Position numbers and translations under genes: made by a program. From a virus: DNA of 64,000 bases. Every line of letters starts with the position of its first letter. The first letter of the stretch is position 1. The notes under the pieces were generated by a model. It ran no database searches and had not been told where the DNA came from. It was given only the letters and a program-made list of their open reading frames with translations. The stretch lies in IMG/VR virus record IMGVR_UViG_3300044911_003339, positions 1 to 64,000 of that record. One strand, given 5' to 3'. Shown here piece by piece: positions 681 to 27,217 of the stretch.

Positions 681-690
681 AATCGGGTAA
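681..690 (+). promoter_or_regulatory. AATCGKGTAR motif copy (AATCGGGTAA)
   Basis: 9 nt before ATG 700, no SD; directly after a terminator. Confidence 0.75.
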
Positions 691-699
691 TGTCCTGGC

Positions 700-957
700 A
701 TGAAGGGCTGGAGCATCAACATCCACAGGCCAGACGACACGCGCGAGGTCGAGCGCGAGCAGCCCCCCGTGCTCGTGCTCGACGGCGGCGAGATCGTGTT
801 CGAGGTGTGGTTCTGGCACGCGCGCAGCGCTCGCTGGTTCGTGATGACGTGGCAGGACGACCCGAGCTTCGCAGCGCGAGGCATCGTCGCCTTCCGGCCC
901 ACGGACGTACCGTCGGCGCTTCGTGAACGCGTGGCCGCTCTCAGGAGCGCGGCGTAG
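700..957 (+). CDS. hypothetical protein
   Basis: ORF between motif and polymerase; stop overlaps polymerase start. Confidence 0.7.
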   Translation: MKGWSINIHRPDDTREVEREQPPVLVLDGGEIVFEVWFWHARSARWFVMTWQDDPSFAARGIVAFRPTDVPSALRERVAALRSAA

Positions 958-3185
958 TGGCCGAGCAAATGATCTTCGGAGGTGCGGACTTCGATCCGCA
1001 CCCGTGGCGCGACTCCGAGGAGATCCGCCTTCGTTCAGGCAGAGTGATTACGCTGCGCATGGTGCTCGTCCAGGACGAGAGCGCGCTGCGTGCGATGGAG
1101 ACCATCGCGTCCGTGCTTCCGTGGATCGCCTACGACTCGGAGACCAGCGGGCTCTTCCCGTGGCTCGGAGCGCGAATCTGCGGTCACGCGCTGGCCGGAT
1201 GGATCGACGCGAGGACGATGATCGCGTGGTACGTGCCCGTGCGTCACGTGGGGGCGATCAACTCGCAAGAGCGCCAGCTTGATCCGGCTGTCGTTGCTCC
1301 GGTGATCGATCGGATTCTGCGAAGCCCCGGACGCTGCGCGCTGCACCACGCGAAGTTCGACTGGTCCCAGCTTCGCGCCGATGGCGTCTCGTGGTCGAGC
1401 ATGCTCGTGCATGAGCGGGGTGGAATCGACTGCCGCGACTTCGACGACATCTCGCTCATGGCGTGCATCGCCGACGAGAACGAGCGCAGCTTCGCGCTGA
1501 AGACGCTGGGTCAGAAGTACATCACCGATCACGCTGCTGACGAGCAACACGTGGTCGTGGACTGGATGAAGGCCGACGCGAAATCGCTCGGCATGAAGTA
1601 CAAGCAGCGTGGCCGATCGGCGAAGGCCGACGAGGGAACGCTCGACGAAGCAGACGAGTCCGAAGAGGTCACCTACCTTCAGCGCTACGGGCACTCGCGC
1701 GTACCGCTGAAGCTGGAGGGGCGCTACGCGTGCCACGACGTGTTCCTCACGCTCGCGCTTCAGGAGCACTACCAATGGATTCGCTCTCGGTACGGACGCG
1801 TCTACGATCGCGAGCGCGCCATCGAGTGCGAGCTACACGAAATGGAGTGGAACGGGCTGCTCGCGGTGCCCGAGGAGATCCACAAGACGCACGACCTCAT
1901 GAAGCGCGAGGTCGCGCACTGGATCACGCGTGTGCGCTCGCTGATCGGAATCGACGATTGGAGCGCGACCGACGAGGAGATGCGCAAGCTCTTCTATGAG
2001 ACGTGGGGCTGTGAGGTCCCGAAGGAGAGCGAGGGCGGCAAGAAGAGCGTGGACAAGGAGACGCGCGCGGTGCTCGCGAGGAAGCACCCCGAGCGCGCGC
2101 CCGTGCTCATCGCGATCGATCGTCTCGCGAAGGCGCGCAAGCTGCGCTCGACCTACGCGAGCGGATTCCTGCGCTACGTCACGCCGTCGAATCGCATTCA
2201 CCCGACCTACAACCAACTGGAGGGGCGAGACGAGGGAGGATTCCCAGTCACCGGCCGCCTCTCGTCGTCGGACCCGAACATCCAGAACGTCGCGAAGAAG
2301 CCCTTCCACACGTTCGAGTGCGGCTGCAAGGCGTGCGTCGAGGAGTTCGGCAACGCGCCCGGTCCGAAGAAGACGATCAGCATCCGCCGCTACTTCGCGG
2401 TGCCGAAGGGATTCGTCCGCGCGTACATCGACTACTCGCAGATCGAGCTTCGCATCCTCGCGTGGTACTCCCAGGACCCGAAGCTCCTGGAGTGCTACGC
2501 GCAGAATCTCGACGTGCACGCGATGGTCGCCGACAACGTGACCGACGGCGATCGCGACATCGCGAAGCAGGTCAACTTCGGCAACTCGTATGGCATGACC
2601 GCGATCGGCCTCGCGCGCCGCGTCGTGTGGACCGACCCCGTGACGGGGAAGAAGAAGCGCTACTACGACGACCCCGAAGAGGCGATTCGTCGCGCCGAGA
2701 AGATCCTGGAGGCGTACTTCCAGTGGCTCACCGGAATCCCGATCTTCCGCGCGAACATGTCGATGGGCATGCGGAAGAACGGCTGCATGTTCGAGAACCC
2801 CTTCGGTCGTCCGCGGCGCATCCCCGAGATCGCGTGGAGCGGCGGAGCGAGGAATCGCGCCGAGCGGCAGATGATGTCGAGCATCATCTCCGGGACCGCG
2901 GCCGACTTGATGAAGGAGGGCCTCCTTCGCGTCGCTCGCTACCTCCGGCAGACGGGCGCGGGCATCCTTCGGCAGTCGATCCACGACGAGCTTGTGATCG
3001 ACCTCGTGATGAGGCCGGGCTGGGCGCAGCACCTCCGCAAGCTGCGTGACCTCATGATCGATTTCCCCATGTTCCCCCGCGGCGGAGTCCCCGTGCTCGC
3101 TTCAGCGGCGATCACGACGACGACGTGGGAGGAAAAGCGCGAGATCGAGCTTCTGGACGACGGTTCGTTCAAGCTCGCCGCGTAA
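957..3185 (+). CDS. polA: DNA polymerase family A with 3'-5' exonuclease
   Basis: ExoI YDSETSG, ExoII HHAKFD, ExoIII YACHD; TGRLSSSDPNIQN; motif A DYSQIELR; motif B KQVNFGNSYG; motif C IHDEL. Confidence 0.97.
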   Translation: MAEQMIFGGADFDPHPWRDSEEIRLRSGRVITLRMVLVQDESALRAMETIASVLPWIAYDSETSGLFPWLGARICGHALAGWIDARTMIAWYVPVRHVGAINSQERQLDPAVVAPVIDRILRSPGRCALHHAKFDWSQLRADGVSWSSMLVHERGGIDCRDFDDISLMACIADENERSFALKTLGQKYITDHAADEQHVVVDWMKADAKSLGMKYKQRGRSAKADEGTLDEADESEEVTYLQRYGHSRVPLKLEGRYACHDVFLTLALQEHYQWIRSRYGRVYDRERAIECELHEMEWNGLLAVPEEIHKTHDLMKREVAHWITRVRSLIGIDDWSATDEEMRKLFYETWGCEVPKESEGGKKSVDKETRAVLARKHPERAPVLIAIDRLAKARKLRSTYASGFLRYVTPSNRIHPTYNQLEGRDEGGFPVTGRLSSSDPNIQNVAKKPFHTFECGCKACVEEFGNAPGPKKTISIRRYFAVPKGFVRAYIDYSQIELRILAWYSQDPKLLECYAQNLDVHAMVADNVTDGDRDIAKQVNFGNSYGMTAIGLARRVVWTDPVTGKKKRYYDDPEEAIRRAEKILEAYFQWLTGIPIFRANMSMGMRKNGCMFENPFGRPRRIPEIAWSGGARNRAERQMMSSIISGTAADLMKEGLLRVARYLRQTGAGILRQSIHDELVIDLVMRPGWAQHLRKLRDLMIDFPMFPRGGVPVLASAAITTTTWEEKREIELLDDGSFKLAA

Positions 3186-3193
3186 TCGTGTAA
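3184..3193 (+). promoter_or_regulatory. AATCGTGTAA motif copy
   Basis: Overlaps polA TAA stop; 10 nt before AGGAGG SD of gene at 3217. Confidence 0.75.
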
Positions 3194-3216
3194 GAGAGGG
3201 TCTAGGAGGTCGCAGA

Positions 3217-3861
3217 ATGAGCAACCACGTCCGTGCGGCGGAGATCGTCCGTCGCCTGAAGCTGTCCATGCCGGTGCATCTCACGATGTCCGATCCGTTC
3301 ACGGGACAGCCCTACACGCTCGCGAAGGAGAACCTGCTCTCGCTGCTCGCGCTCGACGTGACCCGGCTCACGTTCGAGGGGCAGGTGGTGCCGGCGCTCC
3401 ACGCGGAGATCGCCCGAGCGCAGCGCGCGTGCGAGGGCGAAGCGATCAAGGCCGAGGTCGCCTACCGCAAGTGGAAGGCGCAGATCGCAGCGCAGACCCG
3501 CGCGCAGGACGGCCGCGTGACCGAGAAGATGGTCGAGGAATCGTACCGTCAGCGCGCGGAGTACGAGACCATGAGCGAAGCGCCCGAGCGCTGGAACCTT
3601 CTCGCTCGCCTCTTCGGCGACCTGAAGGATTCGGTGCGTCTGAAGGGCGAGATGATCAAGGCGCAGGAGCGCTCGCTCGACGCCGCGGCTCGCACCGAGC
3701 CGAGTGAGACGCTCGACCGCCTGGAGGAGTACGCACGCGAGAGCCTCGCGAGCGCCGCGCCGTCCTGGCAGCACATCGTCCCGAAGGACCCGCCCACACC
3801 CCCGCCCGCAGTCGTCGAAGAGCAGAAGTCGCGCGGTCGCAAGCCGCGAAAGGAGACGTGA
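3217..3861 (+). CDS. UvsY-like recombination mediator (putative)
   Basis: Helical coiled coil with RVTEKMVEESY...EY pattern; located between polymerase, SSB and RecA. Confidence 0.5.
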   Translation: MSNHVRAAEIVRRLKLSMPVHLTMSDPFTGQPYTLAKENLLSLLALDVTRLTFEGQVVPALHAEIARAQRACEGEAIKAEVAYRKWKAQIAAQTRAQDGRVTEKMVEESYRQRAEYETMSEAPERWNLLARLFGDLKDSVRLKGEMIKAQERSLDAAARTEPSETLDRLEEYARESLASAAPSWQHIVPKDPPTPPPAVVEEQKSRGRKPRKET

Positions 3862-3865
3862 AGAG

Positions 3866-5470
3866 ATGATTCCCGCAGGATGGCTTCCGAACCCGAACGC
3901 GCCCGGTTGGTTCTACAACCCGGCGAACCCCTCCCAGCAGATGCAGGGACCTCCGCCCGCCCCGACGGGCTACGCGCCGCAGCCCGGAGCCGTCGCGCCC
4001 GGCACGTACCAGCCTCCCGCTGTGGACCTCGCGAGCCTCGCGGGGCTCTACAACGTCCCGACGCAGGAGGCCGCGGAGCGCGAGCGCGAGCGCGCGGAAT
4101 CCGCAGCGTACGGCGGCGGCACGGACGACTACATCTTCATCGACTTCGAAGAGAAGCTGAACAAGGTGGGCGAGGAGACCTCGCTTCTGCTTCGGCTGCT
4201 CCCCGCGCCCGCGATCATCGACCCCGCGACGGGACGCACGAAGGACGCGTGGTGCCCCGTGCTGCGTCATCGCGTCTACGCGAATCTTCTCCCCAACCCG
4301 CCGCAGGGGAAGGAAGTCGTGTGGATCGACTGCTTCGAGAACGAGGGCGGCCCGAAGGACTGCCCGCTCGACGCGCTGCTCGCAGAGGCGTCGGCGTCGA
4401 GCAACGAGGAGGCGCAGAAGTTCTGCTCGACGATGAAGCCTCGTCAGCGAATCTACTACCAGGCGCTCAACCTGAACGACATCGCGAGCCACTGGGTCCA
4501 GGAGAAGGACACCGCGGGCAACCCGGTGATCGATCCCCTGACGGGGCAGCCGAAGTGGAAGATGATTCCCGGCATCGTCGCCGTCGGCCCGACCGCACAC
4601 ACCGACGTGCTCGGTCTCTTCCGCCACAAGGGCAACCCCTTCAATCCGCTCGCGGAGGGATTCCCGATCAAGCTCGTCAAGACGAAGACGGGCACGAACC
4701 AGATGGACGTGGAGTACAAGGTCTACGACATGGAGCGCTCCGCGATCTCCGGCCAGGACGCGCACGTGTTCAAGTCGCTGATCGACTTCCACAAGTCGGG
4801 CGTCGTCTTCTTCCGCAAGCGTGAGGAACTGGAGGCGATCGCGGACAAGGTGCGCTCACGCTTCGGGCTGCGTCGCGGAGCCCCCGCGCCGACGGCCCCG
4901 ACCTACCCCGCGCCGACGGGTCACGGCGGTCCTCCGCCCGCCCCCTACACGGCCGCGCGCCCCGAGCCCGCGCTTCCGCCTCCCGCGCCCGCGTCGGCCG
5001 GTCTCCAGCCCGGATGGGAGCCGCATCCCAACTACCCGACGCACGCGTGGAATCGCACCACGAACGCCGTGGTGCCCATCGAGCAGGTGCGCGCCGCGCC
5101 CCCGCCTCCCCCGCCGCAGGCAGCGCCCCCGCCGCCTCCCCCGCAGGCAGCGCCGCCCCCGCCCCCGCAGCAGGCCGCGCTGCCCGCGGGCTACGGACTG
5201 CCGCCCGCCGTGGCTCCTGGGCTGCCCCAGGGCGCTCCTCCCCCGCCTCCGGGGTACGGCGCGCCCCCGCCGCCTCCGGGCCACGCAGCCCCGCCCGCGC
5301 CCCAGGGAGCGCCCCCGCCGCCTCCGGGCCACGGCGCTCCCCCGCCGCCTCCGGGCATGCCGCCCGGTCTCGCACCGAACCTCGCAGCGCCCGCGGGCGG
5401 TGCGGTCATGACGCCCGAGCAGTTGGAGGCGATGCTCGCCTCCGGCCGCATCCCCGGCGTCCCGTTCTGA
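3866..5470 (+). CDS. gp32-like ssDNA-binding protein with long Pro-rich tail
   Basis: LRLLP, CPLD, KPRQRIYYQAL, GFPIKLVKTKTG..VEYKV core; context beside RecA; C-terminal PF; start reassigned to ATG 3866. Confidence 0.7.
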   Translation: MIPAGWLPNPNAPGWFYNPANPSQQMQGPPPAPTGYAPQPGAVAPGTYQPPAVDLASLAGLYNVPTQEAAERERERAESAAYGGGTDDYIFIDFEEKLNKVGEETSLLLRLLPAPAIIDPATGRTKDAWCPVLRHRVYANLLPNPPQGKEVVWIDCFENEGGPKDCPLDALLAEASASSNEEAQKFCSTMKPRQRIYYQALNLNDIASHWVQEKDTAGNPVIDPLTGQPKWKMIPGIVAVGPTAHTDVLGLFRHKGNPFNPLAEGFPIKLVKTKTGTNQMDVEYKVYDMERSAISGQDAHVFKSLIDFHKSGVVFFRKREELEAIADKVRSRFGLRRGAPAPTAPTYPAPTGHGGPPPAPYTAARPEPALPPPAPASAGLQPGWEPHPNYPTHAWNRTTNAVVPIEQVRAAPPPPPPQAAPPPPPPQAAPPPPPQQAALPAGYGLPPAVAPGLPQGAPPPPPGYGAPPPPPGHAAPPAPQGAPPPPPGHGAPPPPPGMPPGLAPNLAAPAGGAVMTPEQLEAMLASGRIPGVPF

Positions 5471-5479
5471 TCTTCACGG

Positions 5480-5697: not shown

Positions 5698-5712
5698 CCC
5701 GCTGGAGGAATC

Positions 5713-6846: not shown

Positions 6847-9842
6847 GCAGGACCCGCAAGCCCCGCGCGCTCTTCGCAGCGCCGGCACCGATCGAAGCAG
6901 CCGCGCCGTTCCGCTTCGTCGCGTTCGGCGATCTCCACGTCAGCGCGAAGACGCTCGACCGAGCGATCGATCTCCTCACGCGTGTCGGCGAGGTCGCCGA
7001 CGAGCACGGCGCGGAGATCGTGTGTCTCGGCGACTTCTGGGATCTCCGCAACGTGCTCCACGTGCGGCACGTCGATGCCGTGCTGAGCGTGATCGAGTCG
7101 TGGAAGGCTACCGCGTGGTTCATCCCCGGTAATCACGATCAGGTCACCATCGACGGCAGCGTGCACGGTGTGCGCATCTTCGGTCCGCTCCCGCGCGTGA
7201 AGGTCGCGACCGACCTCATGCTCGACGAAGCGCGCAAGCTCGCGTTCGTGCCGTGGCGCGAGGCCGAGGGCGAGCAGGAGGCCATCTTCCAGCGCGTGCC
7301 CGACGGCTACACCGTCTTCGCTCACGCGGAGCTTCAGGGCGCGACCGCGAACAACGGCAAGCCCGCAGCGGGCAAGCTCGCGCTGCACAGCGCGGAGCGA
7401 TTCCGCGCGCTCTACATGGGCCACTACCACGCGCGACAGAAGCTCGGCACGCGCTCGTGGTACATCGGGTCGCCGTTCGAGATGGATTTCGGCGAGCGAG
7501 GAGAGCCGCACGGGCTCGCGCTCCTGACGAGCGACACCATCGACCCGGCCTTCCTCGACCTCGACCACTACCCCAAGCACTACGTGATCGAGCCTCCCTT
7601 CGACGGCAGGAATCCACTGCCGCCGATTCGTGAGAGCGACATCGTGGAGTTTCGAGGGCCGCGCGAGATGCTCTCGGGAGGGCTCGTCCAGGGCATCATC
7701 GAGAGGCTGCCCACGAAGGACGTGCGCACGGTGCCGGTCGCCGCGCCCGACAAGGCAGGCCCTCCGCAGTTCGCGCTCACGCTCGCCGACGCGCTGGAGA
7801 AGTACGTCGAGCAGGAATCCGAAGCCGCACAGGACCACGGCGCGGACCTCGCGCTCGTGTCGAAGGAGGATCTCCTTCGTGCGGGCCGTGACCTGCTCGC
7901 CCAGGTCCCCGACGCGCGTCTCATCGCACCGGCCGGCGCTCGCGTGCGGGTGCTCGGCGCGTTCGTGATGGACTTCATGCGCGTCCGCGGCGCGGTGAAT
8001 CTCGGGCTGGAGAACCGAGGCACGACGCTGCTGCGCGGTCGCATGGGAGCGGGCAAGACCTCGCTCGTGGATGCGATCACGTGGTGCATCTACGGCGTGA
8101 CGACTCCGCGCAAGGCAGGCGCGGCAGGCGCGTCTCTGCGCGCCGATGACGTGATCAACGACGAGGCCGAGCAGTGCTGCGTCTCGGTCGCTCTGGAGAT
8201 CGACGGCAAGGCCGCGAAGATTTCGCGCACCAAGCGTCGCGGCAAGACCGCGGTGATCGAGATCGACTACGACGGCGTTCCGCCCGCGGGCATCTCCGAT
8301 CAACAGGCGATCGTTCAGCATCTCGTGGGGCTGCCCTACGATCTCTGGCGCTCGTGCGTCTACCTCGGGCAAGGGGCCGTCGCGAACTTCATCACGGACG
8401 CGGACAAGCGCAGGAAGGAGATGCTCTCGACCGCGTTCTCGCTCGGCGCGTGCGTCGATGCGCAGAAGCTCGTTCGCTCACAACTGAAGACCGTCGTCTT
8501 CCAGTGCGAGCGCCTGCGTCTGGAGATTTCGAGCAACACGCGCGCGCTCTCCGAGGTGCAGGCGTTCGACTACGCGAAGCAGATCGCGGATTTCGAGGCA
8601 CGCCGCGAGGCTGCGAAGCAGGCTGCTCGCGACGAGGGCGACGCGGCGAAGCAGGCCATCGCGCAGTGCGAGGAATCGCTCGGCGCAGAGGCGCAGTGGG
8701 TCGAGGCCCGCGCGCAGTACGACGAGCAACTCGCCAAGCTCATGAAGAGCTACGGCGAGGCGTTCGCAGGTCCGAGCGCTGCGTCGCGAGAGCGGCTCGG
8801 AGGGCTCCGCACTGAACTCGGAATCAACCAGCGCGACCGCGCTCGCGTCGAGACGCAGATCGCACACCTGAAGTCCGAGCGCGCATCCGGCCTCGGCGCG
8901 TGCCCCGCGTGCAAGCGTCCGCTCGACGCCTCGGGGCTGGAGACGCAGATCATCGAGGCGGAGGTGAAGCTGCGGCAGTACGACGTGTCGATCCAGGAGA
9001 TCGAGGCGCGCCTCTCGCAGCTTCTCACCGAGCAAGTCGAGGCCGAGGAAGGCGTCGCCGCTCGCCGCGCTGCGATCGAGGAGGACATCGCGAAGGTGCG
9101 CAAGCACATCGACTCGTGCGCTTCAGCGCAGGTCACCTTCGCGCGTCTTCGCGACAACCGAGCCGCGGCCGAGCATCGCCTGAAGAGCGCCCGCGCGCTC
9201 TGGCAGCACCACGAGAGCGAACTGAATCCGTGGAAGGCGAAGCAGGCCGAGCAGGAGGCTCGCGTGTCCGCGCTCCGCGCTGCGATCGAGCGCGACGACG
9301 CGGAGCTTCGCAGCCTCATGCTCACGCGCTCGACGCTGGAGTTCTGGGAGACGGGATTCGGTCAGAACGGGATTCCCGTGCTCGTGCTTCGGCTCGCGCT
9401 CTTCGACCTGGAGGAGCACGCGAATCGCTTCATCGCTGCGCTCACTGAGGGCTCCATCACGTCGCAGCTTTCGATCGAGGGCGACGACCTCATGGTGCGA
9501 TTCTTCAAGCACGAGAACGGGCAGACGCGCGAGCGCACCTACCTGCAACTCTCGGGTGGCGAGAAGCGCTGCGTCGAGATGGCGTTCTCGCCCTTCGCGC
9601 TCTCGGAGATGATCTTCTCGCGCTGCGGCGTGCGCGTGGGGCTGCTCGTGATCGACGAACTGACGACGCACCTCGGGGCCGAGGAGAAGCCCATCGTGTG
9701 CCGGCTCCTGCGCTCGCTCGACCGCGAGACGGTGCTCGTGATCGACCACGACGAGAGCGTGCGCGGCGCGTTCGATCGCTCCATCCTGTGCAGTCGTGAT
9801 TCCGGTGTGCTCGTGCTGACCGAGGGAGGAGTCGAGGGATGA
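6843..9842 (+). CDS. Fused SbcD(Mre11)-SbcC(Rad50) nuclease-ATPase
   Basis: Phosphoesterase motifs GDLH, GDFWD, GNHD, GHYH, then Walker A GRMGAGKTS, coiled coil with CPAC zinc hook, LSGGE, LLVIDE, IDHD, all in one frame. Confidence 0.93.
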   Translation: MSRTRKPRALFAAPAPIEAAAPFRFVAFGDLHVSAKTLDRAIDLLTRVGEVADEHGAEIVCLGDFWDLRNVLHVRHVDAVLSVIESWKATAWFIPGNHDQVTIDGSVHGVRIFGPLPRVKVATDLMLDEARKLAFVPWREAEGEQEAIFQRVPDGYTVFAHAELQGATANNGKPAAGKLALHSAERFRALYMGHYHARQKLGTRSWYIGSPFEMDFGERGEPHGLALLTSDTIDPAFLDLDHYPKHYVIEPPFDGRNPLPPIRESDIVEFRGPREMLSGGLVQGIIERLPTKDVRTVPVAAPDKAGPPQFALTLADALEKYVEQESEAAQDHGADLALVSKEDLLRAGRDLLAQVPDARLIAPAGARVRVLGAFVMDFMRVRGAVNLGLENRGTTLLRGRMGAGKTSLVDAITWCIYGVTTPRKAGAAGASLRADDVINDEAEQCCVSVALEIDGKAAKISRTKRRGKTAVIEIDYDGVPPAGISDQQAIVQHLVGLPYDLWRSCVYLGQGAVANFITDADKRRKEMLSTAFSLGACVDAQKLVRSQLKTVVFQCERLRLEISSNTRALSEVQAFDYAKQIADFEARREAAKQAARDEGDAAKQAIAQCEESLGAEAQWVEARAQYDEQLAKLMKSYGEAFAGPSAASRERLGGLRTELGINQRDRARVETQIAHLKSERASGLGACPACKRPLDASGLETQIIEAEVKLRQYDVSIQEIEARLSQLLTEQVEAEEGVAARRAAIEEDIAKVRKHIDSCASAQVTFARLRDNRAAAEHRLKSARALWQHHESELNPWKAKQAEQEARVSALRAAIERDDAELRSLMLTRSTLEFWETGFGQNGIPVLVLRLALFDLEEHANRFIAALTEGSITSQLSIEGDDLMVRFFKHENGQTRERTYLQLSGGEKRCVEMAFSPFALSEMIFSRCGVRVGLLVIDELTTHLGAEEKPIVCRLLRSLDRETVLVIDHDESVRGAFDRSILCSRDSGVLVLTEGGVEG

Positions 9843-10351
9843 AGACCGCGAAGTACAAGCCCCGGCTCATGCCGGGCGAGCAGTGGTTCGAGGTCGTGTC
9901 GTGCTTCGATCCCGCGCGCATCGAGCACTTCCCCTACGGGCCCAACGGCGAGCGCGCGTTCGTGCTCGGCGCTCTCGACAAGCTGCTCGTGGTCGAGGTG
10001 CCACGCACGATGGACGGCGAGTCGATCGGAGCGCTCGGGCGGCACCTGTCGGAATCGGGTAAGGAAGCACTCATCGTGAGCGAAGGCATCCGGTTCCTCC
10101 GGCTGCGCGCGCTCTCTGTGAGCGAGGAACGAGACATCGAGCGGCAGATCAAGGAGGCCGAAGATGCGCAGCGTGCGAGAGAGGGAGAGCGGCTGGACGC
10201 CCCCGAAGTTGCTGGGGGCGGATCCGGGGTTGGCGAACTTCGGCATGGCGGTTCTGGAGGTGACTCCGGGCCGCGCGCCGATGCTGCTGCACCTCTCGAC
10301 GACGCGAACGTCGGGCGAGCCGAAGAAGAAGCGGACGATCCATCTCGCTGA
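9839..10351 (+). CDS. hypothetical protein (3' end overlaps ruvC)
   Basis: ATGA coupling and SD; typical codon usage. Confidence 0.65.
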   Translation: MKTAKYKPRLMPGEQWFEVVSCFDPARIEHFPYGPNGERAFVLGALDKLLVVEVPRTMDGESIGALGRHLSESGKEALIVSEGIRFLRLRALSVSEERDIERQIKEAEDAQRAREGERLDAPEVAGGGSGVGELRHGGSGGDSGPRADAAAPLDDANVGRAEEEADDPSR

Positions 10352-15980: not shown

Positions 15981-16108
15981 GCGAAGAGCGAACCGTCGTG
16001 AACCACAACCACGTTGCTGATTACACGGGCTGCGGTTGCTTCGTGTTCCTCAGCGTGTGCGTGATCTGCCTGACCCTCATCGTGCTCGCGGAGGGCGGAC
16101 ACCTGTAA
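15977..16108 (+). CDS. small membrane protein
   Basis: Single TM; TAA stop overlaps motif. Confidence 0.5.
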   Translation: MSEERTVVNHNHVADYTGCGCFVFLSVCVICLTLIVLAEGGHL

Positions 16109-16116
16109 TCGTGTAA
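16107..16116 (+). promoter_or_regulatory. AATCGTGTAA motif copy
   Basis: 9 nt before ATG 16126. Confidence 0.75.
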
Positions 16117-16125
16117 GAGGCTCTC

Positions 16126-16434
16126 ATGCCGATCTTCACGAAGAGCTACACGCACGTCTGGGACGAGAACGCTCCGCGCTGCGGTCTCGCCACGCCCGGA
16201 GGCGAGTGCAACTGGGCCCGCGAGCCCGGCCTGCCATGGTGCAACGCGCACCTCTGCGCGTTCTACTGCAAGCTCTACACGCGCGGGCTCCGCACGGAAT
16301 CGCTCCCTCAGATCCCGCTTCCCGCGGGGCTGACCATGGAGCGATTCCGTGAGGCGTTCGGGCAGTACATCACGCACGTCGAGGAGATGCACCGAAGGCA
16401 GTCCGCGCCCGGCGCGAAGGAATCCAGGAGGTGA
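16126..16434 (+). CDS. hypothetical Cys/His protein
   Basis: C-x7-C...WCNAH possible Zn site. Confidence 0.6.
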   Translation: MPIFTKSYTHVWDENAPRCGLATPGGECNWAREPGLPWCNAHLCAFYCKLYTRGLRTESLPQIPLPAGLTMERFREAFGQYITHVEEMHRRQSAPGAKESRR

Positions 16435-17325: not shown

Positions 17326-17341
17326 GCGGAAGGAGACGACC

Positions 17342-19049: not shown

Positions 19050-19052
19050 GCG

Positions 19053-19751
19053 ATGGCGAGTCGGAAATCGGCGGAGCACGTCGGGCTCGCTGACCTGACC
19101 GGAACAACGGTGCATCGGCTCGACGGGAGACTCGTGTCGCTCGGGCCCGTGGTCGGGTTCAGCGTCTCGGCCAGCGTGAGCGAGGAAGGCGTGAATGCGG
19201 CGAGCCCGGAGGCCAGAAGTGCCGCAGAAGCCGTCAGAGACCGGCTCCACGCGCTGCTGACTGTCACGCGCGCGCAGGAGGCCCGGACCTTCGCGTCGGT
19301 GCGCGACTGGGCGTGGCGTGCACCTGCGATGCGATGCTCGCACTGCGGTCAGAGGATTCCCGACCACGAACGCAAGACGGTGCTGGGCTCGGTCGAGGAT
19401 GTCGTCGTGGACCTGCACCTCGTGCGCGCCGCGCTCGCAGCGATGCCCGAGACCCACGCGCTCCGAGTGACACCGGCCGAGCGACGACTCGTGATCTCGT
19501 GCGCGCCCTTCAGCATCGTAATCGCCGCGCGCATCCCGAGGCCTGAGGAGAAGATTCACCCGCTGCCCATGGTGCCCGCGCCGCTGCTGCGAAGGCAGGA
19601 CAAGCCCGCGAGGAAGGGCACGGACTACGGCTTCAACGCGTGGCCGCGCAAGTGGCCGAGCAAGGCTCGTAATCGTGTAAGCCCTGGGCAGGAGGTGAAT
19701 CGTGAGAGTGAGCGCAGCGAAGGAGACGAAGAAACGGATCCGCGACAGTGA
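19053..19751 (+). CDS. hypothetical protein (3' end uncertain)
   Basis: Contains CSHC; overlaps motif and next gene. Confidence 0.55.
   Translation: MASRKSAEHVGLADLTGTTVHRLDGRLVSLGPVVGFSVSASVSEEGVNAASPEARSAAEAVRDRLHALLTVTRAQEARTFASVRDWAWRAPAMRCSHCGQRIPDHERKTVLGSVEDVVVDLHLVRAALAAMPETHALRVTPAERRLVISCAPFSIVIAARIPRPEEKIHPLPMVPAPLLRRQDKPARKGTDYGFNAWPRKWPSKARNRVSPGQEVNRESERSEGDEETDPRQ
19671..19680 (+). promoter_or_regulatory. AATCGTGTAA motif copy
   Basis: 9 nt before AGGAGG SD of gene at 19702. Confidence 0.75.
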
Positions 19752-20693: not shown

Positions 20694-20700
20694 GGACATC

Positions 20701-21077: not shown

Positions 21078-21514
21078 CGATTCCGTACGTGCGAGGTTCC
21101 GACACGAGTCGAGCCGCTGCCGAGTCCATGGTGGAGAATCGTCTCAACGAACTACAGCGACACGTGCTCGCGTTCCTGCGAAGCCGCGGTGCTCGCGGCG
21201 CATCGGACGAGGAGATGCAGGAAGCGCTCGGCATGGCCGCGAGCACGCAGCGCCCGAGACGCGTCGAGCTTATGCGCAAGGGCCTCGTCGTTGCGTCCGG
21301 CACGACGAGCATGACGCGCTCGGGCAGGCAGGCCGAGGTCTGGCTCGCGGCCGAGCCGGGGAGCGCCGTGGACGCGAGCGATGACACGCGCGCTCCGACG
21401 AAGGCGCAGATCGCGAAGGCCGTTGCAGCGATGCGCGCTGCGTGGCGCGCGGGTGTCGCGATGGACGACGACGTAATCGCTGTCATGCGCTGGCTCGCGA
21501 AGAAGAGCGCGTAA
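21074..21514 (+). CDS. winged-helix DNA-binding protein
   Basis: SDTSRAAA...GASDEE...RPRRVELMRKGLV...TRSGRQAEVW, a common phage wHTH pattern. Confidence 0.75.
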   Translation: MTIPYVRGSDTSRAAAESMVENRLNELQRHVLAFLRSRGARGASDEEMQEALGMAASTQRPRRVELMRKGLVVASGTTSMTRSGRQAEVWLAAEPGSAVDASDDTRAPTKAQIAKAVAAMRAAWRAGVAMDDDVIAVMRWLAKKSA

Positions 21515-21522
21515 TCGTGTAA
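21513..21522 (+). promoter_or_regulatory. AATCGTGTAA motif copy
   Basis: Overlaps TAA stop; 10 nt before AGGAGG. Confidence 0.75.
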
Positions 21523-21543
21523 GGCAGGACGTAGGAGGACCCG

Positions 21544-21800
21544 ATGAAGAAGCGCAACGAGGAAGACACGAGGCCGCAGGTCGAGCGAGACATCGACACG
21601 ATCAAGCATGAGCTTCTCCTGTTTCGGGAGAGGGAGCACGCTTGGGCCAAAGCGCGCGCCGACCTGGAGCGCGCAGTTGCCGCAGAGCAGGCAGCCGCCG
21701 CAAAGGAGCGAGAGCGCTCCGCCTCCTGGAGCGGGATCTGCGCAGAGCAACGCACGCCCTGCTCTCGCTCATCGGCACGGCCGGGATGTTGAAGCCGTGA
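21544..21800 (+). CDS. coiled-coil protein, probable 1-nt frameshift near 21749
   Basis: Shifted frame reads THALLSLIGTAGMLKP* and ends in a GTGA overlap typical of this genome. Confidence 0.45.
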
Positions 21801-22036: not shown

Positions 22037-22284
22037 CCGATTACCAGTGCGCGCTGACCGCCGACGGACAGTGGCACACGACGCAAGAGCAAGCGGCACC
22101 TCCGGCGATCACGCGCGGAGGTGCCTTCTCGACGTGCGCGGTGTGGCTCGACTTCAAGCGAGGATTCGAGCGCCGCCGCCCGACGTGCCCCGAGTGCCTT
22201 CGCGCATGCGAGCACGACGAGCAACGCAGGAATCGTGTAGAACCAGCGCGGGTGCGAAGGCCGCGCCCAATGGAGGCAGCATGA
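22033..22284 (+). CDS. hypothetical Cys-containing protein
   Basis: CPEC; coupled. Confidence 0.55.
   Translation: MTDYQCALTADGQWHTTQEQAAPPAITRGGAFSTCAVWLDFKRGFERRRPTCPECLRACEHDEQRRNRVEPARVRRPRPMEAA
22231..22240 (+). promoter_or_regulatory. motif variant AATCGTGTAG (intragenic, upstream of tad2)
   Basis: 40 nt upstream of ATG 22281. Confidence 0.5.
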
Positions 22285-22523
22285 CGTTCGGAGATGCGAT
22301 CGAGGCGATGAAGCGGGGAGAGCGCGTGTCGCGCAAGGGCTGGAACGGCAAGGGCATGTGGCTCGTGCTGATCATGCCGGGCAACGCGATGCACGTGTCG
22401 AGCGCGGGAGGATTCGAGATGCAGCCGTGCATCGGCATGAAGACGGCGCAGGGCACGATGCAGCCCGGATGGCTCGCGTCGCAGGCGGACATGCTGGCCT
22501 CCGACTGGGAGGTCGTGTCGTGA
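22281..22523 (+). CDS. tad2: DUF2829 / Tad2-family anti-Thoeris sponge protein
   Basis: MTFGDAIEAMKRGERVSRKGWNGKGMWL...MKTAQG...WLASQADMLASDW matches the DUF2829 signature end to end. Confidence 0.88.
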   Translation: MTFGDAIEAMKRGERVSRKGWNGKGMWLVLIMPGNAMHVSSAGGFEMQPCIGMKTAQGTMQPGWLASQADMLASDWEVVS

Positions 22524-23251
22524 CGATGCGAGGCTGGGAGAACTACCTCGTGCGGCTCGGGATCGACGCGCTCGACGCCACGATGCGAGAGAGCACGCCG
22601 ACGAGCCGCGTGCGGTTCGAGAATCACCTTCGCGAGCGCATGCAGAACGCGGCGAAGGTGATCCACATGGAGGTCGAGAAGAAGAGCGAGCCCGTTCGCG
22701 ACATGCAGGTCGAGGTGATGATTCGCGACCTGCTGTCCGAGGTGCCCGTCGGGCGAAGGCCCGAGGCGCTTCGCAAGATCGAGGGCATGTGTCGCGCCGT
22801 GCGGCAGGTCGCCGACACCGGGCTGCTCGCGCGCAACGAGGCGGTGCAGGAGTTCATCCAGCGCATCGACGCAGCGGTCGTCCGGCACTCGGGCGACGAG
22901 GGGCGCTACGAGCCGTCGATCAAGTGGCTCGCGGGCTACGTCGAGAAGCTGTGCGAGGAGAGCGCTGCGCTGCGCTCTGTCGCGGAGGGCCGCTCGCCTG
23001 ACCCGGAGATGGCCGCGGACCTCGACGTGACTCGGCGGAACGCGGAGGTGGCGGAGAAGGCCGCCGACGACGCAGAGGCGAAGCTGAAGCGCGTGCTCGA
23101 CGCGTGGTCGCGCGTCGATGTCGGCGACCTCGCCTCGGGCATCTACGCGGCAGCGGGAAGCGGCGACGAGGGACGCGAGCGGTACAAGGCCGCAGCGCTC
23201 GCCATCGACGAGATGAACGAGATCGTCGCGAAGCTCGCGGAGGGCAAGTGA
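22520..23251 (+). CDS. hypothetical helical protein
   Basis: Coupled ORF. Confidence 0.65.
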   Translation: MTMRGWENYLVRLGIDALDATMRESTPTSRVRFENHLRERMQNAAKVIHMEVEKKSEPVRDMQVEVMIRDLLSEVPVGRRPEALRKIEGMCRAVRQVADTGLLARNEAVQEFIQRIDAAVVRHSGDEGRYEPSIKWLAGYVEKLCEESAALRSVAEGRSPDPEMAADLDVTRRNAEVAEKAADDAEAKLKRVLDAWSRVDVGDLASGIYAAAGSGDEGRERYKAAALAIDEMNEIVAKLAEGK

Positions 23252-23805
23252 ACCCTCTCGCGCAAGCGCTGCTCACGGGGCTCATGCTCCGCTTCGGATT
23301 CCTCTCGCGTGCGGAGATCGACGCGGTGTGGGCTTCGATGGTCGAGCGGCTCGGAACGGACCGCGCCATCGCGCACGTCCAGGGCGTCATCGACACGACG
23401 CTGGAGGCGCTCCCCGAGGGCTGCCCCAACGACCTCGCGGGGCGAGCAATCGCAGGTGCGGTCAAGGCCATCGTCGCGGAGTGGATGCCGCGCGTCGCCA
23501 CGCTGAAGGAGATCGAGGGTGGCGAGTTCAACCCGCTGCTGACGCATCTCATCGTCTCGTGGCGCGCACGCACGAGCGACCTGCTGACCGACGAGAACGA
23601 AGCCGAGTGGTGGAATCTGCTCGTGGAGGCGCACGGGGTGGCCGGTGCGAGCGAGCAGATCGAGCGCACCATGACGCACGCGGCGAGCAGCACGATCCGC
23701 ACGGAGAGCGACGACATGAAGCACGCGATGGCCGTCGGGCACGAGGCGGTGCGCGCGCTTCTCCGGCTCGTGGACGAGACACGCGCGAAGCTCACGCCTT
23801 CGTGA
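23248..23805 (+). CDS. hypothetical protein
   Basis: Coupled ORF. Confidence 0.65.
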   Translation: MNPLAQALLTGLMLRFGFLSRAEIDAVWASMVERLGTDRAIAHVQGVIDTTLEALPEGCPNDLAGRAIAGAVKAIVAEWMPRVATLKEIEGGEFNPLLTHLIVSWRARTSDLLTDENEAEWWNLLVEAHGVAGASEQIERTMTHAASSTIRTESDDMKHAMAVGHEAVRALLRLVDETRAKLTPS

Positions 23806-23821
23806 GAGACGCGAGAGTCGG

Positions 23822-23831
23822 AATCGTGTAA
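23822..23831 (+). promoter_or_regulatory. AATCGTGTAA motif copy
   Basis: Intergenic exact copy. Confidence 0.7.
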
Positions 23832-23878
23832 GAGGGGCTGTCGCGCGGGCGCAGGGCTCGCGCTGTAGGAGGAGCGAC

Positions 23879-23941
23879 ATCAAGAAGGCGACCGCAGCCT
23901 TCGCGAAGGTCGCGAAGAAGAAGGCCGCGAAGAAGGGCTGA
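23879..23941 (+). CDS. putative 20-aa Lys-rich micropeptide with ATC start
   Basis: AGGAGG at 23867-23872, 6 nt spacer, ATC-AAG-AAG... IKKATAAFAKVAKKKAAKKG*. Confidence 0.4.
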   Translation: MKKATAAFAKVAKKKAAKKG

Positions 23942-23966
23942 ACCACACACGTTGATCGCGAGGATT

Positions 23967-23996
23967 CGGGGCGGACTGATTCGTCGGTCCGCCCCG
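23967..23996 (+). terminator. strong UUCG hairpin (terminator-like)
   Basis: CGGGGCGGACTGA-TTCG-TCGGTCCGCCCCG; weak U tract. Confidence 0.6.
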
Positions 23997-23997
23997 T

Positions 23998-24007
23998 AAT
24001 CGTGTAA
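23998..24007 (+). promoter_or_regulatory. AATCGTGTAA motif copy
   Basis: 9 nt before ATG 24017. Confidence 0.75.
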
Positions 24008-24016
24008 GGGGTGAGC

Positions 24017-25903
24017 ATGAAGATCCAGATCACCAAGCAGTTGTCGCAAGAACTGAGTCGTCTCAGCAAGAAGGGCGCGGACTACGTGCCCGAGCACGGC
24101 GAGGCGGTTCGCATTCTGTTGCAGACGTTCAACTTCGAAGTGGACGAATACCGCTGGAGTCGTGACCGCGAGATCGACATCACGCGCACGCCGCACGACA
24201 AGCTCCAAGCGCTGCTCGCGAGCTTCCGCAAGCTGAAGGGAATCCGCGGCTACAAGTCCGCGTCGCTCGACATCGAGACGTGGCTCGACTCCCGCGACAA
24301 GACCGGCACGAAGAAGGCCCGCAACGTGAAGCACTACTGGCTTCTCGCTCGCGACTTCTTCGCGCACCAGAAGCACCAGCGGCTCTACGAGCAGGACGAG
24401 AGCGGAGCGCAGCGCGCGTACCATCTCGCCGCGCTCGATTACGAGCCGCAACGCACCTACAGCTACGGCACCTCGCCTGCTCGCGTCATCTTCACGCTCG
24501 CCTACCGCGAGTTCGGATTCGTCCGCACCACGAAGCGCTCGCACACGCTGGAGGAGTGCACCGTGGTCGAGGGTCTGCGCAAGGTCGGCCTCTTCCCGGA
24601 GAACGCATCGAACCGCGAGGAGTACCTGCTCGAATACGCGCGATGGCGCTCGCTCGCGGAGCGCATCGGCCTTCAGTGCTGGGCGCGCGGGCAGGCGAGC
24701 GACGACCTCGACGGGAATCCGAAGCGCACGGGATGGTGGTGGTCGCGCAACGTCGTGACGCTCGACCCGCAGGGCGAGGCCGGCAAGGTCGTGATCGACG
24801 TGTTCGAGGAAGAGAGCGACGTGAGGCAGGAGGATCGGTGGTACCGCACCGACAGCCGAAGCTCTTCGGACAAGATCGACAACGCGTACTGGGAGAAGCT
24901 CCGCGTCGCGAAGGACGAGGATGCGGACGAGGACGTGAAGGAAGAGCACGTGCACGAGGACGACGAGGACGAATCGTCTTCTCCTTCCGCTGAAGAGGGC
25001 GGCGAGGTCGGCGAGGGCCCGCTGGAGATTCCCGTCTACCCGATGCTCGCGGTGTTCGACATGAAGCGACACCTGCGACTGCGCGTGCACGTGTCGCAGT
25101 TGGAGGATTACGCCTTCGACCCGCGACTCGGCGAGCGTCTCATCCTGCCGCCCGACGTGCGCGACCTCGTGACCGTGCTCCTCTCGCACAAGGCGCAGTT
25201 CGCGGACGTGATCAACGGCAAGAGCGGCGGCGTCTGCATCCTGTGCGCGGGCCCGCCCGGCACGGGCAAGACGCTGACGGCGGAGGTCTACTCCGAGATC
25301 ATGCGGCGTCCGCTCTACGCGGTGCAGACGGCGCAACTCGGGACCTCGGCGGAGGAACTGGAGAACGAGCTTCGGCGCGTGTTCGCGCGAGCGCAGCGCT
25401 GGGGCGCGATTCTCCTGCTCGACGAAGCCGACGTGTACGTGCGCGCTCGCGGTGACGACCTCGACCAGAACGCGATCGTGGGCGTGTTCCTCCGTGTGCT
25501 GGAGTACTACCAGGGAATCATGTTCATGACGACGAACCGCGTGGACATGGTGGACGACGCGATCGCGAGCCGGTGCATCGCGCGCATCGACTACAAGATT
25601 CCGCACCCCAACGACCAGAAGCGGATCTGGCGCGTGCTCGCCGACTCGTCGGGCATCGAGCTTCCCGACGCGACCATCGAGGAGATCGTCGCCGCGTGGT
25701 CGGACCTCTCCGGCCGCGACATCAAGAACCTGCTGAAGCTCTCGCGCATGGTGACGAGCGCGAAGAGCGAGCCGATCACGAAGGCCACGATCGAGTTCGT
25801 GAAGCGCTTCAAGCCGACGGGCGCGCAGGAGGTCTACGACACGCGCGAGGGTGGCTCTCTCACGCTGCGTCAGAAGGGCGTGCGCTCTGTGAGGAACGCA
25901 TGA
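24017..25903 (+). CDS. AAA+ ATPase with large N-terminal domain
   Basis: GPPGTGKT, ILLLDEAD, FLRVLEYYQGIMFMTTNR, DDAIASR. Confidence 0.93.
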   Translation: MKIQITKQLSQELSRLSKKGADYVPEHGEAVRILLQTFNFEVDEYRWSRDREIDITRTPHDKLQALLASFRKLKGIRGYKSASLDIETWLDSRDKTGTKKARNVKHYWLLARDFFAHQKHQRLYEQDESGAQRAYHLAALDYEPQRTYSYGTSPARVIFTLAYREFGFVRTTKRSHTLEECTVVEGLRKVGLFPENASNREEYLLEYARWRSLAERIGLQCWARGQASDDLDGNPKRTGWWWSRNVVTLDPQGEAGKVVIDVFEEESDVRQEDRWYRTDSRSSSDKIDNAYWEKLRVAKDEDADEDVKEEHVHEDDEDESSSPSAEEGGEVGEGPLEIPVYPMLAVFDMKRHLRLRVHVSQLEDYAFDPRLGERLILPPDVRDLVTVLLSHKAQFADVINGKSGGVCILCAGPPGTGKTLTAEVYSEIMRRPLYAVQTAQLGTSAEELENELRRVFARAQRWGAILLLDEADVYVRARGDDLDQNAIVGVFLRVLEYYQGIMFMTTNRVDMVDDAIASRCIARIDYKIPHPNDQKRIWRVLADSSGIELPDATIEEIVAAWSDLSGRDIKNLLKLSRMVTSAKSEPITKATIEFVKRFKPTGAQEVYDTREGGSLTLRQKGVRSVRNA

Positions 25904-26115
25904 AGCTCTACGTCATCACGACTCGCACGAAGGACCACGGCGACAAGTACGTGCTCCGCGCACACCTCGTGACGCCCAGCGGTAGCTTCCCCGAGGCGAT
26001 TCCGATCGCCGTGGTGGACACGATCGAGGAAGCGCGCGAGCACGTGCCGTTCGGCTGCATGAACCTCGGACGCGACGAGCAGGATGATCCCGTCATCGTC
26101 GAGACGTGGCTCTGA
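25900..26115 (+). CDS. hypothetical protein
   Basis: Coupled; ends DDPVIVETWL. Confidence 0.65.
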   Translation: MKLYVITTRTKDHGDKYVLRAHLVTPSGSFPEAIPIAVVDTIEEAREHVPFGCMNLGRDEQDDPVIVETWL

Positions 26116-26118
26116 GGG

Positions 26119-26128
26119 AATCGGGTAG
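26119..26128 (+). promoter_or_regulatory. motif variant AATCGGGTAG
   Basis: 8 nt before ATG 26137. Confidence 0.65.
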
Positions 26129-26136
26129 AACCGCGC

Positions 26137-26895
26137 ATGCTGAAGTGTGATCACTGCGCGCAGCGGTTCGTGCTCACGGTCGTGATCGGGCCCGTCGCCG
26201 ATCCGACCGTGTGCGCGCGTTGCTGGCGAGAGAGGACGACCGTCGTGCTGCCTGCGAAGACCGAGCTTCGATTCCACCTCTACGCGCAGCCTCGCGGCTC
26301 GACCGGCCTCGTGAAGATCGGGCGCTGCGACCATCACGCGAGCGGCGGCTACTCGCTGGAGTTCGACAAGCCCGCGCTCGCCGACATGCAGCGCTGGATT
26401 CTCGCGAGCGCGCACGAGTGCTCGACGTGGGCCGACTTCGGCCTCTCGGCGCTCCCCGACACGCTCGACGACATCCACGTGTGGGCCGACTCGGTTCTCG
26501 TGATGAGCGGCTCGCGCCTGCCCTCGGGCTACTGCGAAGGCGTGGCCGAGAAGATGATTCTCTTCCCTCGGGCCGGTGCGACGACGTTGCCCGCGCGTGC
26601 CACGGCGTTCCATTCGCTCGCGTCCGTGACGCCGTGCCCCATCGAGGGCTGCCGCCTCATGGCGTGCCCTGGGAGGCCGCTCTGCGTCTCGCACTGGGCG
26701 ACCCTGCCCGAGCCCGAGCGGGAGGCCGTCTGGCGAACGCCTGAGGGCCCTGCGCGCGATGCGCGGTTGCGGGAGGCGGTCGAGAAGGCGAAGCTCGGGA
26801 CGTGCCGCCCCGCCGACGCCCCGCCGCCCGTGCCGCCTCCGGTCCCCGAGACTCCCGTGGCCGCTTCGCGCGTGCGCCGGCCGAGGCTCGCGTGA
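26137..26895 (+). CDS. hypothetical Zn-binding protein
   Basis: CDHC...CARC; CPIEGC...LCVSHW. Confidence 0.6.
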   Translation: MLKCDHCAQRFVLTVVIGPVADPTVCARCWRERTTVVLPAKTELRFHLYAQPRGSTGLVKIGRCDHHASGGYSLEFDKPALADMQRWILASAHECSTWADFGLSALPDTLDDIHVWADSVLVMSGSRLPSGYCEGVAEKMILFPRAGATTLPARATAFHSLASVTPCPIEGCRLMACPGRPLCVSHWATLPEPEREAVWRTPEGPARDARLREAVEKAKLGTCRPADAPPPVPPPVPETPVAASRVRRPRLA

Positions 26896-27209
26896 CGCCG
26901 CTCTCGCCGCTGTTCTACGTCGAGTGCGCCGCGTGCGGTGCAGAGGAGCCTGCCGTGCGCCGCGAGGGCCGCATCGAGCCTCCCGACGGCTGGGCCATCC
27001 TCACGCCCGAGTGCTGCGGAGCGAAGCGCGATCTCTTCGCGTGCGAGACGCACGGCTGCCCGACGAAGACCGTCGAGCGGATGTTCGACGGGCACCCGGA
27101 GACCACGCGCCTCTTCGTGATCATCCTCGGGAAGCCTCGCGACGACGGCACGCCCTCGCGATTCTTCTACGTGCGTGAGGGCAAGCGAGTCCGCCTCGTG
27201 CCCGCGTAA
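26892..27209 (+). CDS. hypothetical Zn-binding protein
   Basis: CAAC...PDGW...CETHGC. Confidence 0.6.
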   Translation: MTPLSPLFYVECAACGAEEPAVRREGRIEPPDGWAILTPECCGAKRDLFACETHGCPTKTVERMFDGHPETTRLFVIILGKPRDDGTPSRFFYVREGKRVRLVPA

Positions 27210-27217
27210 TCGTGTAA
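27208..27217 (+). promoter_or_regulatory. AATCGTGTAA motif copy
   Basis: Overlaps TAA stop; 8 nt before ATG 27226. Confidence 0.75.

Follow-up and report, generated by a model that had tools for sequence, protein, structure and literature searches.

A candidate single-element promoter without a -35 box, and two sigma-like proteins that might read it, in an uncultivated high-GC phage

The DNA analysed here (the window) comprises the first 64 kb of a phage record of 105,161 bp with 67% G+C (IMG/VR record IMGVR_UViG_3300044911_003339). It contains repeated copies of a ten-nucleotide word, AATCG[T/G]GTA[A/G] (AATCGKGTAR), which, judged from its sequence context, is probably a one-element promoter specific to this phage lineage and read by a phage-encoded sigma factor on the host core RNA polymerase. 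As we picture it, host core RNA polymerase carrying a phage sigma-like protein would bind a single contiguous element without a -35 box, of which ATCG[G/T]GTA would be the core shared across the lineage, and would start transcription about 11–13 nt downstream of the T of GTA. The transcript would begin at, or within a few nucleotides of, the A of an ATG in 6 of 14 units or the first A of an AGGAGG in 3 of 14, and elsewhere would carry a leader of 28–125 nt. These promoters would head all the short operons in the half of the genome that serves replication, recombination and nucleotide metabolism.

The window holds 11 copies of the word, all on the + strand, against 0.09 expected (100 shuffles: mean 0.09, maximum 1, with 0 of 100 reaching 11). 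An earlier sequence-only reading had reported the same 11 coordinates on the + strand alone, none of them after 28 kb, and our count reproduced these exactly. The non-random occurrence and the bias in strand and position also extended to the phage's whole genome (hereafter G000), for which we made our own gene calls (115 genes). Three further copies lie beyond the window, at 87773 (minus strand), 88624 and 100087, giving 14 in total, of which 13 are on the + strand and all 14 are co-oriented with the genes. Nearly all genes are on the + strand, and the sole minus-strand copy, at 87773, ends 9 nt before the ATG (87754) of the sole minus-strand gene.

Alignment of the 14 sites gave the consensus cG[T/G]AATCG[T/G]GTAAG[A/G], with conservation limited to about 14–15 nt and unconserved flanks. 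There was no -35-like box and no information upstream at any of these sites, in agreement with the earlier claim that no -35 is shared. When we scanned the genome with a position-weight matrix, the 14 sites scored 17.5–28.5 bits and were set apart from everything else except two weak extra candidates, at 90601 (18.2 bits) and 12945 (16.1 bits). The same scan found no copy in the 58-kb structural region, which the last copy (27208) faces. The motif lacks dyad symmetry, its core being not self-complementary and strictly strand-specific. A repeat cassette was ruled out, as nothing is conserved outside the 14–15 nt, and an operator for a dimeric repressor was rejected on account of the missing dyad, the strand specificity and the absence of any other promoter element nearby. 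A search of IMG/VR with the exact 14-mer returned mostly chance single matches and otherwise only near-identical relatives, and a literature search for the motif string returned unrelated primers only. Two other words were discarded: the seven-copy AAGTCTGCAAG in L121, an apparent variant of the motif, is a tandem coding repeat, and GGCGTCATGA in L123 is a start/stop-overlap junction.

The distribution is best described on a closed genome. The two ends of the nominally linear record overlap by 192 bp (window 1–192 versus genome 104970–105161; one mismatch, 99.5% identity) inside an Ala/Lys/Pro-coding repeat, and contig G005, from a close relative (95–97% identical), continues straight over the junction. 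Because G005 spans it, the genome is circular or circularly permuted, and the record's junction falls inside the gene of a sigma-like fusion protein, sigma-I, described below. The motif-bearing half extends from near 87 kb across the end of the record to 28 kb, and codes for SNF2/DEAD and DnaB-like helicases, a primase, MoxR/CobS- and CobT-like proteins, PolA, an SSB-like protein, RecA, an SbcCD-like fusion, a RuvC-like protein and an AAA ATPase. The structural remainder, 28–86 kb (58 kb), encodes the terminase, portal, a MuF-like protein, protease, scaffold, a capsid protein related to those of SPO1-like phages, and tail genes. No cultured phage was similar to the genome at the DNA level.

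The motif copies in the window, with the terminators next to them, are as follows (all on the + strand; ORF, open reading frame):
634–666: intrinsic terminator, a GC hairpin followed by TTTTT, which ends the unit of the sigma-I fusion ORF upstream of copy 1.
678–692: motif copy 1 (core 681–690), after the terminator at 634–666; leaderless ATG at 700.
3181–3195: motif copy 2, with the TAA stop of PolA (957–3185); AGGAGG at 3204–3209 and ATG at 3217.
10050–10064: motif copy 3, in ORF 9839–10351, 101 nt upstream of the RuvC-like gene (ATG 10164).
16104–16118: motif copy 4, supplying the TAA stop at 16106–16108; leaderless ATG at 16126.
19668–19682: motif copy 5, at the 3' end of ORF 19053–19751 (codons N-R-V); AGGAGG at 19690–19695 and GTG at 19702.
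21510–21524: motif copy 6, supplying the TAA stop at 21512–21514; AGGAGG at 21533–21538 and ATG at 21544.
22228–22242: motif copy 7, a GTAG variant, followed by a 40-nt leader with a hairpin and then ATG 22281.
23819–23833: motif copy 8, at the head of a unit about 170 nt long with the hairpin at 23968–23995 as its end.
23968–23995: terminator-like GC hairpin directly upstream of motif copy 9.
23995–24009: motif copy 9; leaderless ATG at 24017 (AAA ATPase of 628 aa).
26116–26130: motif copy 10, a GTAG variant; leaderless ATG at 26137 (252 aa).
27205–27219: motif copy 11, the last before the structural genes, with a TAA stop at 27207–27209; leaderless ATG at 27226.

The copies stand at a fixed distance from translation signals. 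At six G000 sites (681, 16107, 23998, 26119, 27208 and, on the minus strand, 87773), the A of an ATG lies at offset 11–12 from the T of GTA, and these ATGs open long ORFs with high G+C at third codon positions. At three others (3184, 19671 and 21513), the first A of an AGGAGG lies at offset 12–13. Measured from the end of the 10-mer, the spacings matched those read earlier from the letters: 9, 9, 9, 8 and 8 nt to the ATGs at 700, 16126, 24017, 26137 and 27226, and 10, 9 and 10 nt to the AGGAGG after 3184, 19671 and 21513, respectively. Since two different landmarks, ATG and AGGAGG, share one offset, a single start point of transcription is suggested. The remaining five sites have leaders of 28–125 nt or, at 23822, the short hairpin-ended unit. 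For the genes at 26137 and 27226, gene picking based on Shine-Dalgarno sequences chose downstream starts (26245 and 27244). The leaderless ATGs agree better with motif spacing and coding signal, and would lengthen both proteins.

The motif is also packed tightly against stop codons and terminators. Stop codons of the 115 called genes comprise 107 TGA, 6 TAA and 2 TAG, and four of the six TAA stops (3185, 16108, 21514 and 27209) are the TAA inside cGTAATCG. The earlier description of a TGA-dominated genome in which the motif supplies four TAA stops was therefore borne out, with six TAA stops among our gene calls where five had been noticed before. Three copies directly follow terminator hairpins, at 634–666 (with a T-run), 23968–23995 and genome 88576–88614; the first two lie upstream of 681 and 23998, and the earlier reading had mentioned two copies after such hairpins. 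Two copies lie within coding sequence: 10053, correctly called intragenic at the outset (inside ORF 9839–10351), and 19671, at the 3' end of ORF 19053–19751, where it reads N-R-V. Because copies directly follow terminators and the lone minus-strand gene has a copy of its own, the arrangement argues for a promoter.

An explanation without any promoter, which we consider very improbable, would make the motif a site at which a sequence-specific endoribonuclease cuts transcripts so as to leave them leaderless, or else the operator of a phage regulator. Ruler-like RNA cleavage would likewise give a fixed distance to start codons, and the two copies inside ORFs suit an RNA site. However, no upstream transcript is expected where copies follow strong terminators or precede the lone minus-strand gene, and a promoter of some kind has to be present at these places; the spacing to AGGAGG also equals that to ATG, which fits one start point and not a translation signal. 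For an operator, the missing dyad symmetry is the obstacle.

Searches of IMG/VR revealed two diverged lineages, G001 (100 kb, with terminal repeats) and G002/G003 (about 74% nucleotide identity to G001), both syntenic with G000 at 30–70% amino-acid identity. The most over-represented 9–11-mers of G001 are CATCGGGTA(T)(A). It carries 15 copies of CATCG[G/T]GTA, all on the + strand between 4.6 and 51.3 kb and in the non-structural half only, and its last copy (51276) stands about 1 kb before the terminase gene, as in the layout of G000. G003 has six co-oriented copies of CATCG[G/T]GTA, again only in the non-structural half, and these are mirrored on the minus strand of G002. In the close relative G005, every copy in the covered part is kept (six copies, same strand arrangement). 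The core ATCGKGTA is common to the lineages, whereas the flanks differ (5' A versus C; 3' AAG versus [T/G][A/G]).

Start codons or GGAGG follow the T of GTA by 11–14 nt in the relatives too. Among 35 pooled sites, start codons occupied offsets 11–14 in at least 14 and Shine-Dalgarno sequences occupied offsets 11–13 in 7, and information was confined to about -20 to -8, with nothing at -35. The orthologues of the gene starting at 700 show the same order in all three lineages (stop codon, terminator with T-run, motif, 9–10 nt, ATG), and their protein similarity begins exactly at the leaderless Met. A copy stands just after PolA in G000, G001 and G003 alike. Both in G000 (the weak site at 90601) and in G001 (copy 8170), the DnaB-like gene has a site upstream of it. 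Conservation that starts at the leaderless Met, together with a core, spacing and distribution kept in the relatives, is a further reason for the promoter reading. The interpretation as a promoter, made before any relatives were compared, thus gains from co-orientation, placement after terminators, the absent dyad, the fixed distance and conservation in two diverged lineages.

Further analysis identified two sigma-like proteins in the phage, in line with the proposal that a phage sigma is involved. The first, sigma-I, is encoded as follows:
Genome 103737 to the record's end, continuing at window 1–618, + strand: sigma-I fusion ORF (618 aa), with an ECF-like sigma domain starting at 103737 and, in window 1–618, a C-terminal part made up of an AKP-rich linker and a DUF2924-like domain (ECF, extracytoplasmic function).

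The sigma-I sequence matched Pfam Sigma70_r2 at 25–26.5 bits (cut-off 24) and TIGR02937 (ECF) at E 3e-4. In an AlphaFold2 model with a mean predicted local distance difference test score (pLDDT) of 80.7, residues 1–70 superposed on sigma domain 2 (sigma2) of many sigmas (Z about 10, 2.1–2.5 Å). The sigma2 match was 2.3 Å over 69 residues, the matches including complexes of sigma2 with single-stranded -10 DNA, and the three-helix C-terminal domain of the model aligned to sigma4. There is no stop codon after the sigma domain: the ORF goes on through a Cys-rich segment, the Ala/Lys/Pro linker and the DUF2924-like domain to its end at window 618, and the near-identical copy in G005 was called as 618 aa. 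The family consensus of the Cys-rich segment, C-x18-C-x2-C-x5-C, has a WhiB-like cysteine spacing; Pfam gave no Whib match for it. An exhaustive profile search collected 49 cluster representatives of sigma-I, some stand-alone (about 180 aa) and many fused (500–630 aa). Aligning 20 homologues showed that the region-2 signatures and a GRxPHD segment are conserved, and that the sigma4 helix-turn-helix stretch is variable and often about 10 residues shorter. Such a degenerate helix-turn-helix would fit a sigma unable to read a -35 box. A PDB sequence search with sigma-I gave no match, and a scan of metagenome and genome contigs with the sigma-I alignment found no relatives.

A trace of the motif was also found inside the sigma-I genes themselves. 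In G001 and G003, a full copy lies in the sigma-I linker, where it is read as H-R-V and is followed by GGAGG and the Met of the Cys-rich part. Across the family, 11 of about 33 fused representatives have [Y/H/N/D]-R-V 8–13 residues before an internal Met, in a linker that is otherwise unconserved around it. In codons this is the string NAY-CGN-GTN, whose NAT-CGT-GTA form spells ATCGTGTA. Because Y, H, N and D are the four residues encoded by NAY, the pattern looks like the footprint of the DNA word AT-CGT-GTA and not like a protein motif. This codon footprint links the motif core with sigma-I genes far outside the three lineages that were read at the DNA level. In addition, the sigma-I operon is downstream of motif copies (100087 in G000, 8170 in G001).

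The second protein, sigma-II, is part of a large head-module protein:
48024–51137, + strand: head-module protein of 1037 aa, whose residues 500–830 (49521–50513) form a complete sigma2-3-4 module, the second candidate for reading the motif.

Profile matches of sigma-II were marginal (SigF, E 0.018; FliA, E 0.57). For the model of residues 500–830 (pLDDT 76), all 50 of the 50 listed Foldseek matches were sigma-factor chains or models, almost all of them group 1/2 sigmas (sigmaA, sigma70 or sigmaS) in holoenzyme structures, with E down to 1e-4 and probabilities of 0.99–1.0, and nearly all alignments covered about 290–300 columns. Since the matches are sigma factors over nearly all columns, the modelled segment is a complete sigma2-3-4 module. 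Orthologues of the protein are present in G001 and G002, and at least 11 more homologues were found. The portal/MuF genes stand on one side of its gene and the (prohead) protease on the other, and beside it are the genes of a zeta-toxin-kinase protein with DarB-like matches and of an SNF2 protein of 2211 aa. The orthologues carry an N-terminal InPase-like domain, which gave a match to the C-terminal part of a phage portal chain of solved structure. Packaging of the sigma-II protein into the capsid is plausible.

Motif and sigma-like genes co-occur in the three lineages with readable DNA, and sigma-II is present in the same three as sigma-I, so that co-occurrence does not tell the two sigmas apart. 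Nor can the genome fragments G006–G010, which carry sigma-II homologues, separate them, being mostly structural regions with motif counts at background. G004 and L125–L127, unrelated phages with weak sigma matches, were set aside.

As the reader of the motif we lean towards sigma-I over sigma-II because of the family-wide codon footprint, the degenerate sigma4, the CGT in the core, the self-regulated layout and the precedent of gp36 of phage phiEco32. CGT is a feature of ECF -10 boxes, and a self-regulated operon is typical of ECF sigmas. The alternative that sigma-II reads the motif, being ejected with the DNA before any phage expression, and that sigma-I, made from those promoters, then takes over a later class is, in our estimate, rather unlikely. 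In favour of sigma-II as the reader, its sigma3 domain would suit a contiguous element at -20 to -8 no less well, and this weighs against sigma-I; moreover, ECF sigmas normally need a -35 box and lack region 3 for an extended -10. We found no paper on a virion-carried sigma in a literature search.

Several other observations weigh against a promoter read by a phage sigma. The profile scores of sigma-I are weak, and neither sigma-I nor sigma-II has a match among cultured phages or PHROGs. The sigma-I operon itself sits behind motif copies, and neither a consensus scan of genome 86–96 kb (0 sites) nor inspection turned up a host-type promoter that could start sigma-I expression. Phage sigmas usually drive middle or late genes, structural ones included; here the structural region has no internal motif copies. 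Finally, the start site and the promoter activity themselves are deduced from the letters. The register may also differ: the earlier placement of the TA at about -12 holds if transcription starts at the A of ATG, but if CGKGTA is an ECF -10 (-12 to -7), starts could lie 4–5 nt upstream of the ATG, giving very short leaders instead of none.

The motif was compared with known promoter classes. Against a housekeeping -10, the T-A is invariant in the hexamers starting at TA (TAAGNN and TAGAAC in G000, TA[T/G]NNN in G001), but T at the sixth position (T-7) occurs in 1 of 14 G000 sites and 1 of 15 G001 sites, being absent from 13 of 14 and 14 of 15, respectively. A TTGACA-like -35 box 16–18 bp upstream was not seen, as the 35 pooled sites hold no information upstream of about -20. 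Because T-7 and a -35 are absent, it is unlikely that the host primary (housekeeping) sigma reads the motif. The core contains CGT when K is T, but the -35 AAC box of canonical ECF promoters is missing. Several features of a one-element promoter for a phage sigma were observed, namely a single element, no -35, co-oriented copies, an encoded sigma-family protein and joint travel of motif and sigma; a start at a fixed short distance downstream is suggested by the common 11–13 nt to ATG or AGGAGG.

That the motif is an early-class promoter read by a host alternative sigma, or by the host holoenzyme with a phage activator, while the phage sigmas serve other, unrecognized promoters, seems improbable to us. 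It would remove the difficulty of starting sigma-I expression, as the motif heads the expected early genes including the sigma-I operon; the CGT resembles cellular ECF -10 elements; and our comparisons had little power to exclude a second shared motif for a phage sigma. By contrast, the core is lineage-specific, differing between lineages (AATCG..GTAAG versus CATCG..GTA[T/G]), and travels with the phage sigma genes. The missing T-7 and -35 speak against a host sigma, no activator-type upstream box is conserved, and a lytic programme dependent on a stress-induced host ECF sigma would be unusual.

A promoter for an unrecognized, non-T7 phage RNA polymerase starting at or just after the conserved block is extremely improbable. 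In its favour, the element is contiguous, about 14 nt long, strand-specific and without a -35, as promoters of single-subunit polymerases are, and several large proteins have no family match (for example 37252–39552). Against it, conservation ends 9–10 nt short of the start, unlike in T7-type promoters, where it extends through +1; the presence of two sigma-like proteins implies that the host core polymerase is used; and the phage has no PF00940 match (a control search had no match in any genome either and was thus uninformative).

For a promoter read by a phage sigma, partial precedents exist. In phiEco32, middle and late promoters have a single AATGTA element centred at -11.5 and no -35, and are read by the ECF-like gp36 together with gp79 (PMC12276001). 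The present case resembles it in having one element near -10, which host core polymerase with a very divergent two-domain phage sigma would read. It differs in that the element is longer (about 14 nt, roughly -20 to -8), has another sequence and would serve genes of the replication module, and in that sigma-I carries a fused Cys-rich/DUF2924-like tail; we identified no gp79-like partner. Sigma-I has no detectable sequence similarity to gp36.

Late promoters of phage T4 (TATAAATA at -10) are read by gp55, need gp33 and the sliding clamp, and serve late genes. They too are one-element, lack a -35, occur in many co-oriented copies and depend on a truncated phage sigma; here, however, non-structural genes are served and many starts would be leaderless. 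Bacillus subtilis SigW recognizes the canonical ECF (group 4) promoter TGAAAC-N16-CGTA. The likeness lies in the sigma2 fold, the ECF-type region 2, the CGT in the motif and an operon behind its own presumed promoter, but the defining -35 AAC box at 16–17 bp spacing is absent from all 35 sites. Extended -10 promoters of group 1–3 sigmas (TGnTATAAT) share a contiguous element that makes the -35 dispensable, and would suit the sigma3 domain of sigma-II, but the motif is not TGn-TAnnnT, lacks T-7 and has ATCGKG as its upstream half. Phage N4 injects a whole virion RNA polymerase that reads hairpin early promoters. The parallel, capsid cargo freeing early transcription from host promoter recognition, applies only if sigma-II is virion-carried, and the candidate cargo here is a sigma module that would borrow the host core enzyme.

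The late genes were considered separately. Late intergenic regions of the three genomes shared no motif beyond Shine-Dalgarno and stop-codon contexts. A few TAnnnT hexamers stand 5–8 nt before leaderless ATGs, as at 33471 in G000, after the terminator at 33406–33439, and before the portal gene in G001 and G002; TATACT is conserved before a tail-region gene in G001 and G002. The housekeeping-type hexamer TAGGCT in particular occurs 5–7 nt before leaderless ATGs in window 33406–33473, at 59855 in G001 and at the portal gene of G002. These sites suggest a host that has TAnnnT promoters and is able to translate leaderless mRNAs. Transcription of the late region may come by read-through from the last motif promoter, from host-type sites, or from both.

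Some neighbouring features deserve mention. The unit behind motif copy 8 (23834–23995) contains AGGAGG (23867–23872), then 6 nt and a 20-codon Lys/Ala-rich frame that starts with ATC and has no ATG, GTG or TTG nearby. A small RNA is conceivable here, or a tiny protein whose start codon is non-canonical. Between the divergent copies 87773 (minus) and 88624 (plus) lies an ORF-free region of 994 nt (genome 87755–88748), which holds a 14-bp perfect inverted repeat with GANTC sites (87889–87926). It yielded no transfer RNA, transfer-messenger RNA or Rfam family, and has no counterpart in G001. In the head module, two giant proteins recall the capsid-packaged Dar anti-restriction proteins of phage P1: one of 1120 aa (40262–43624), with zeta-toxin-like kinase and DarB-like matches, and one of 2211 aa (51487–58122), with an SNF2 helicase.

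Viewed against T4 gp55 and phiEco32 gp36, one-element promoters without a -35 for divergent phage sigmas are already known, and the proposed pairing would by analogy join them. Three aspects are unusual: the two sigma-like proteins, one of them embedded in a probable capsid-cargo protein; a candidate promoter inside the linker of a sigma fusion ORF, visible as a family-wide codon footprint; and the very tight packing of stop codon, putative promoter and start codon. The analysis offers a transcription map for an uncultivated group of high-GC phages of about 100 kb without a cultured representative, naming about 15 candidate promoters, their operons, several terminators and leaderless starts missed by gene callers (26137 and 27226). 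It would supply, from compared genomes, a clean case of a divergent phage sigma paired with a promoter that lacks a -35, and the 14-nt element with its small sigma might serve as an orthogonal expression part in high-GC hosts. The sigma module in a likely capsid-cargo protein raises the question of whether a phage can deliver a sigma factor with its DNA; if so, this phage would bring its own sigma and, ahead of any phage gene expression, steer the host core polymerase to some 15 private promoters.

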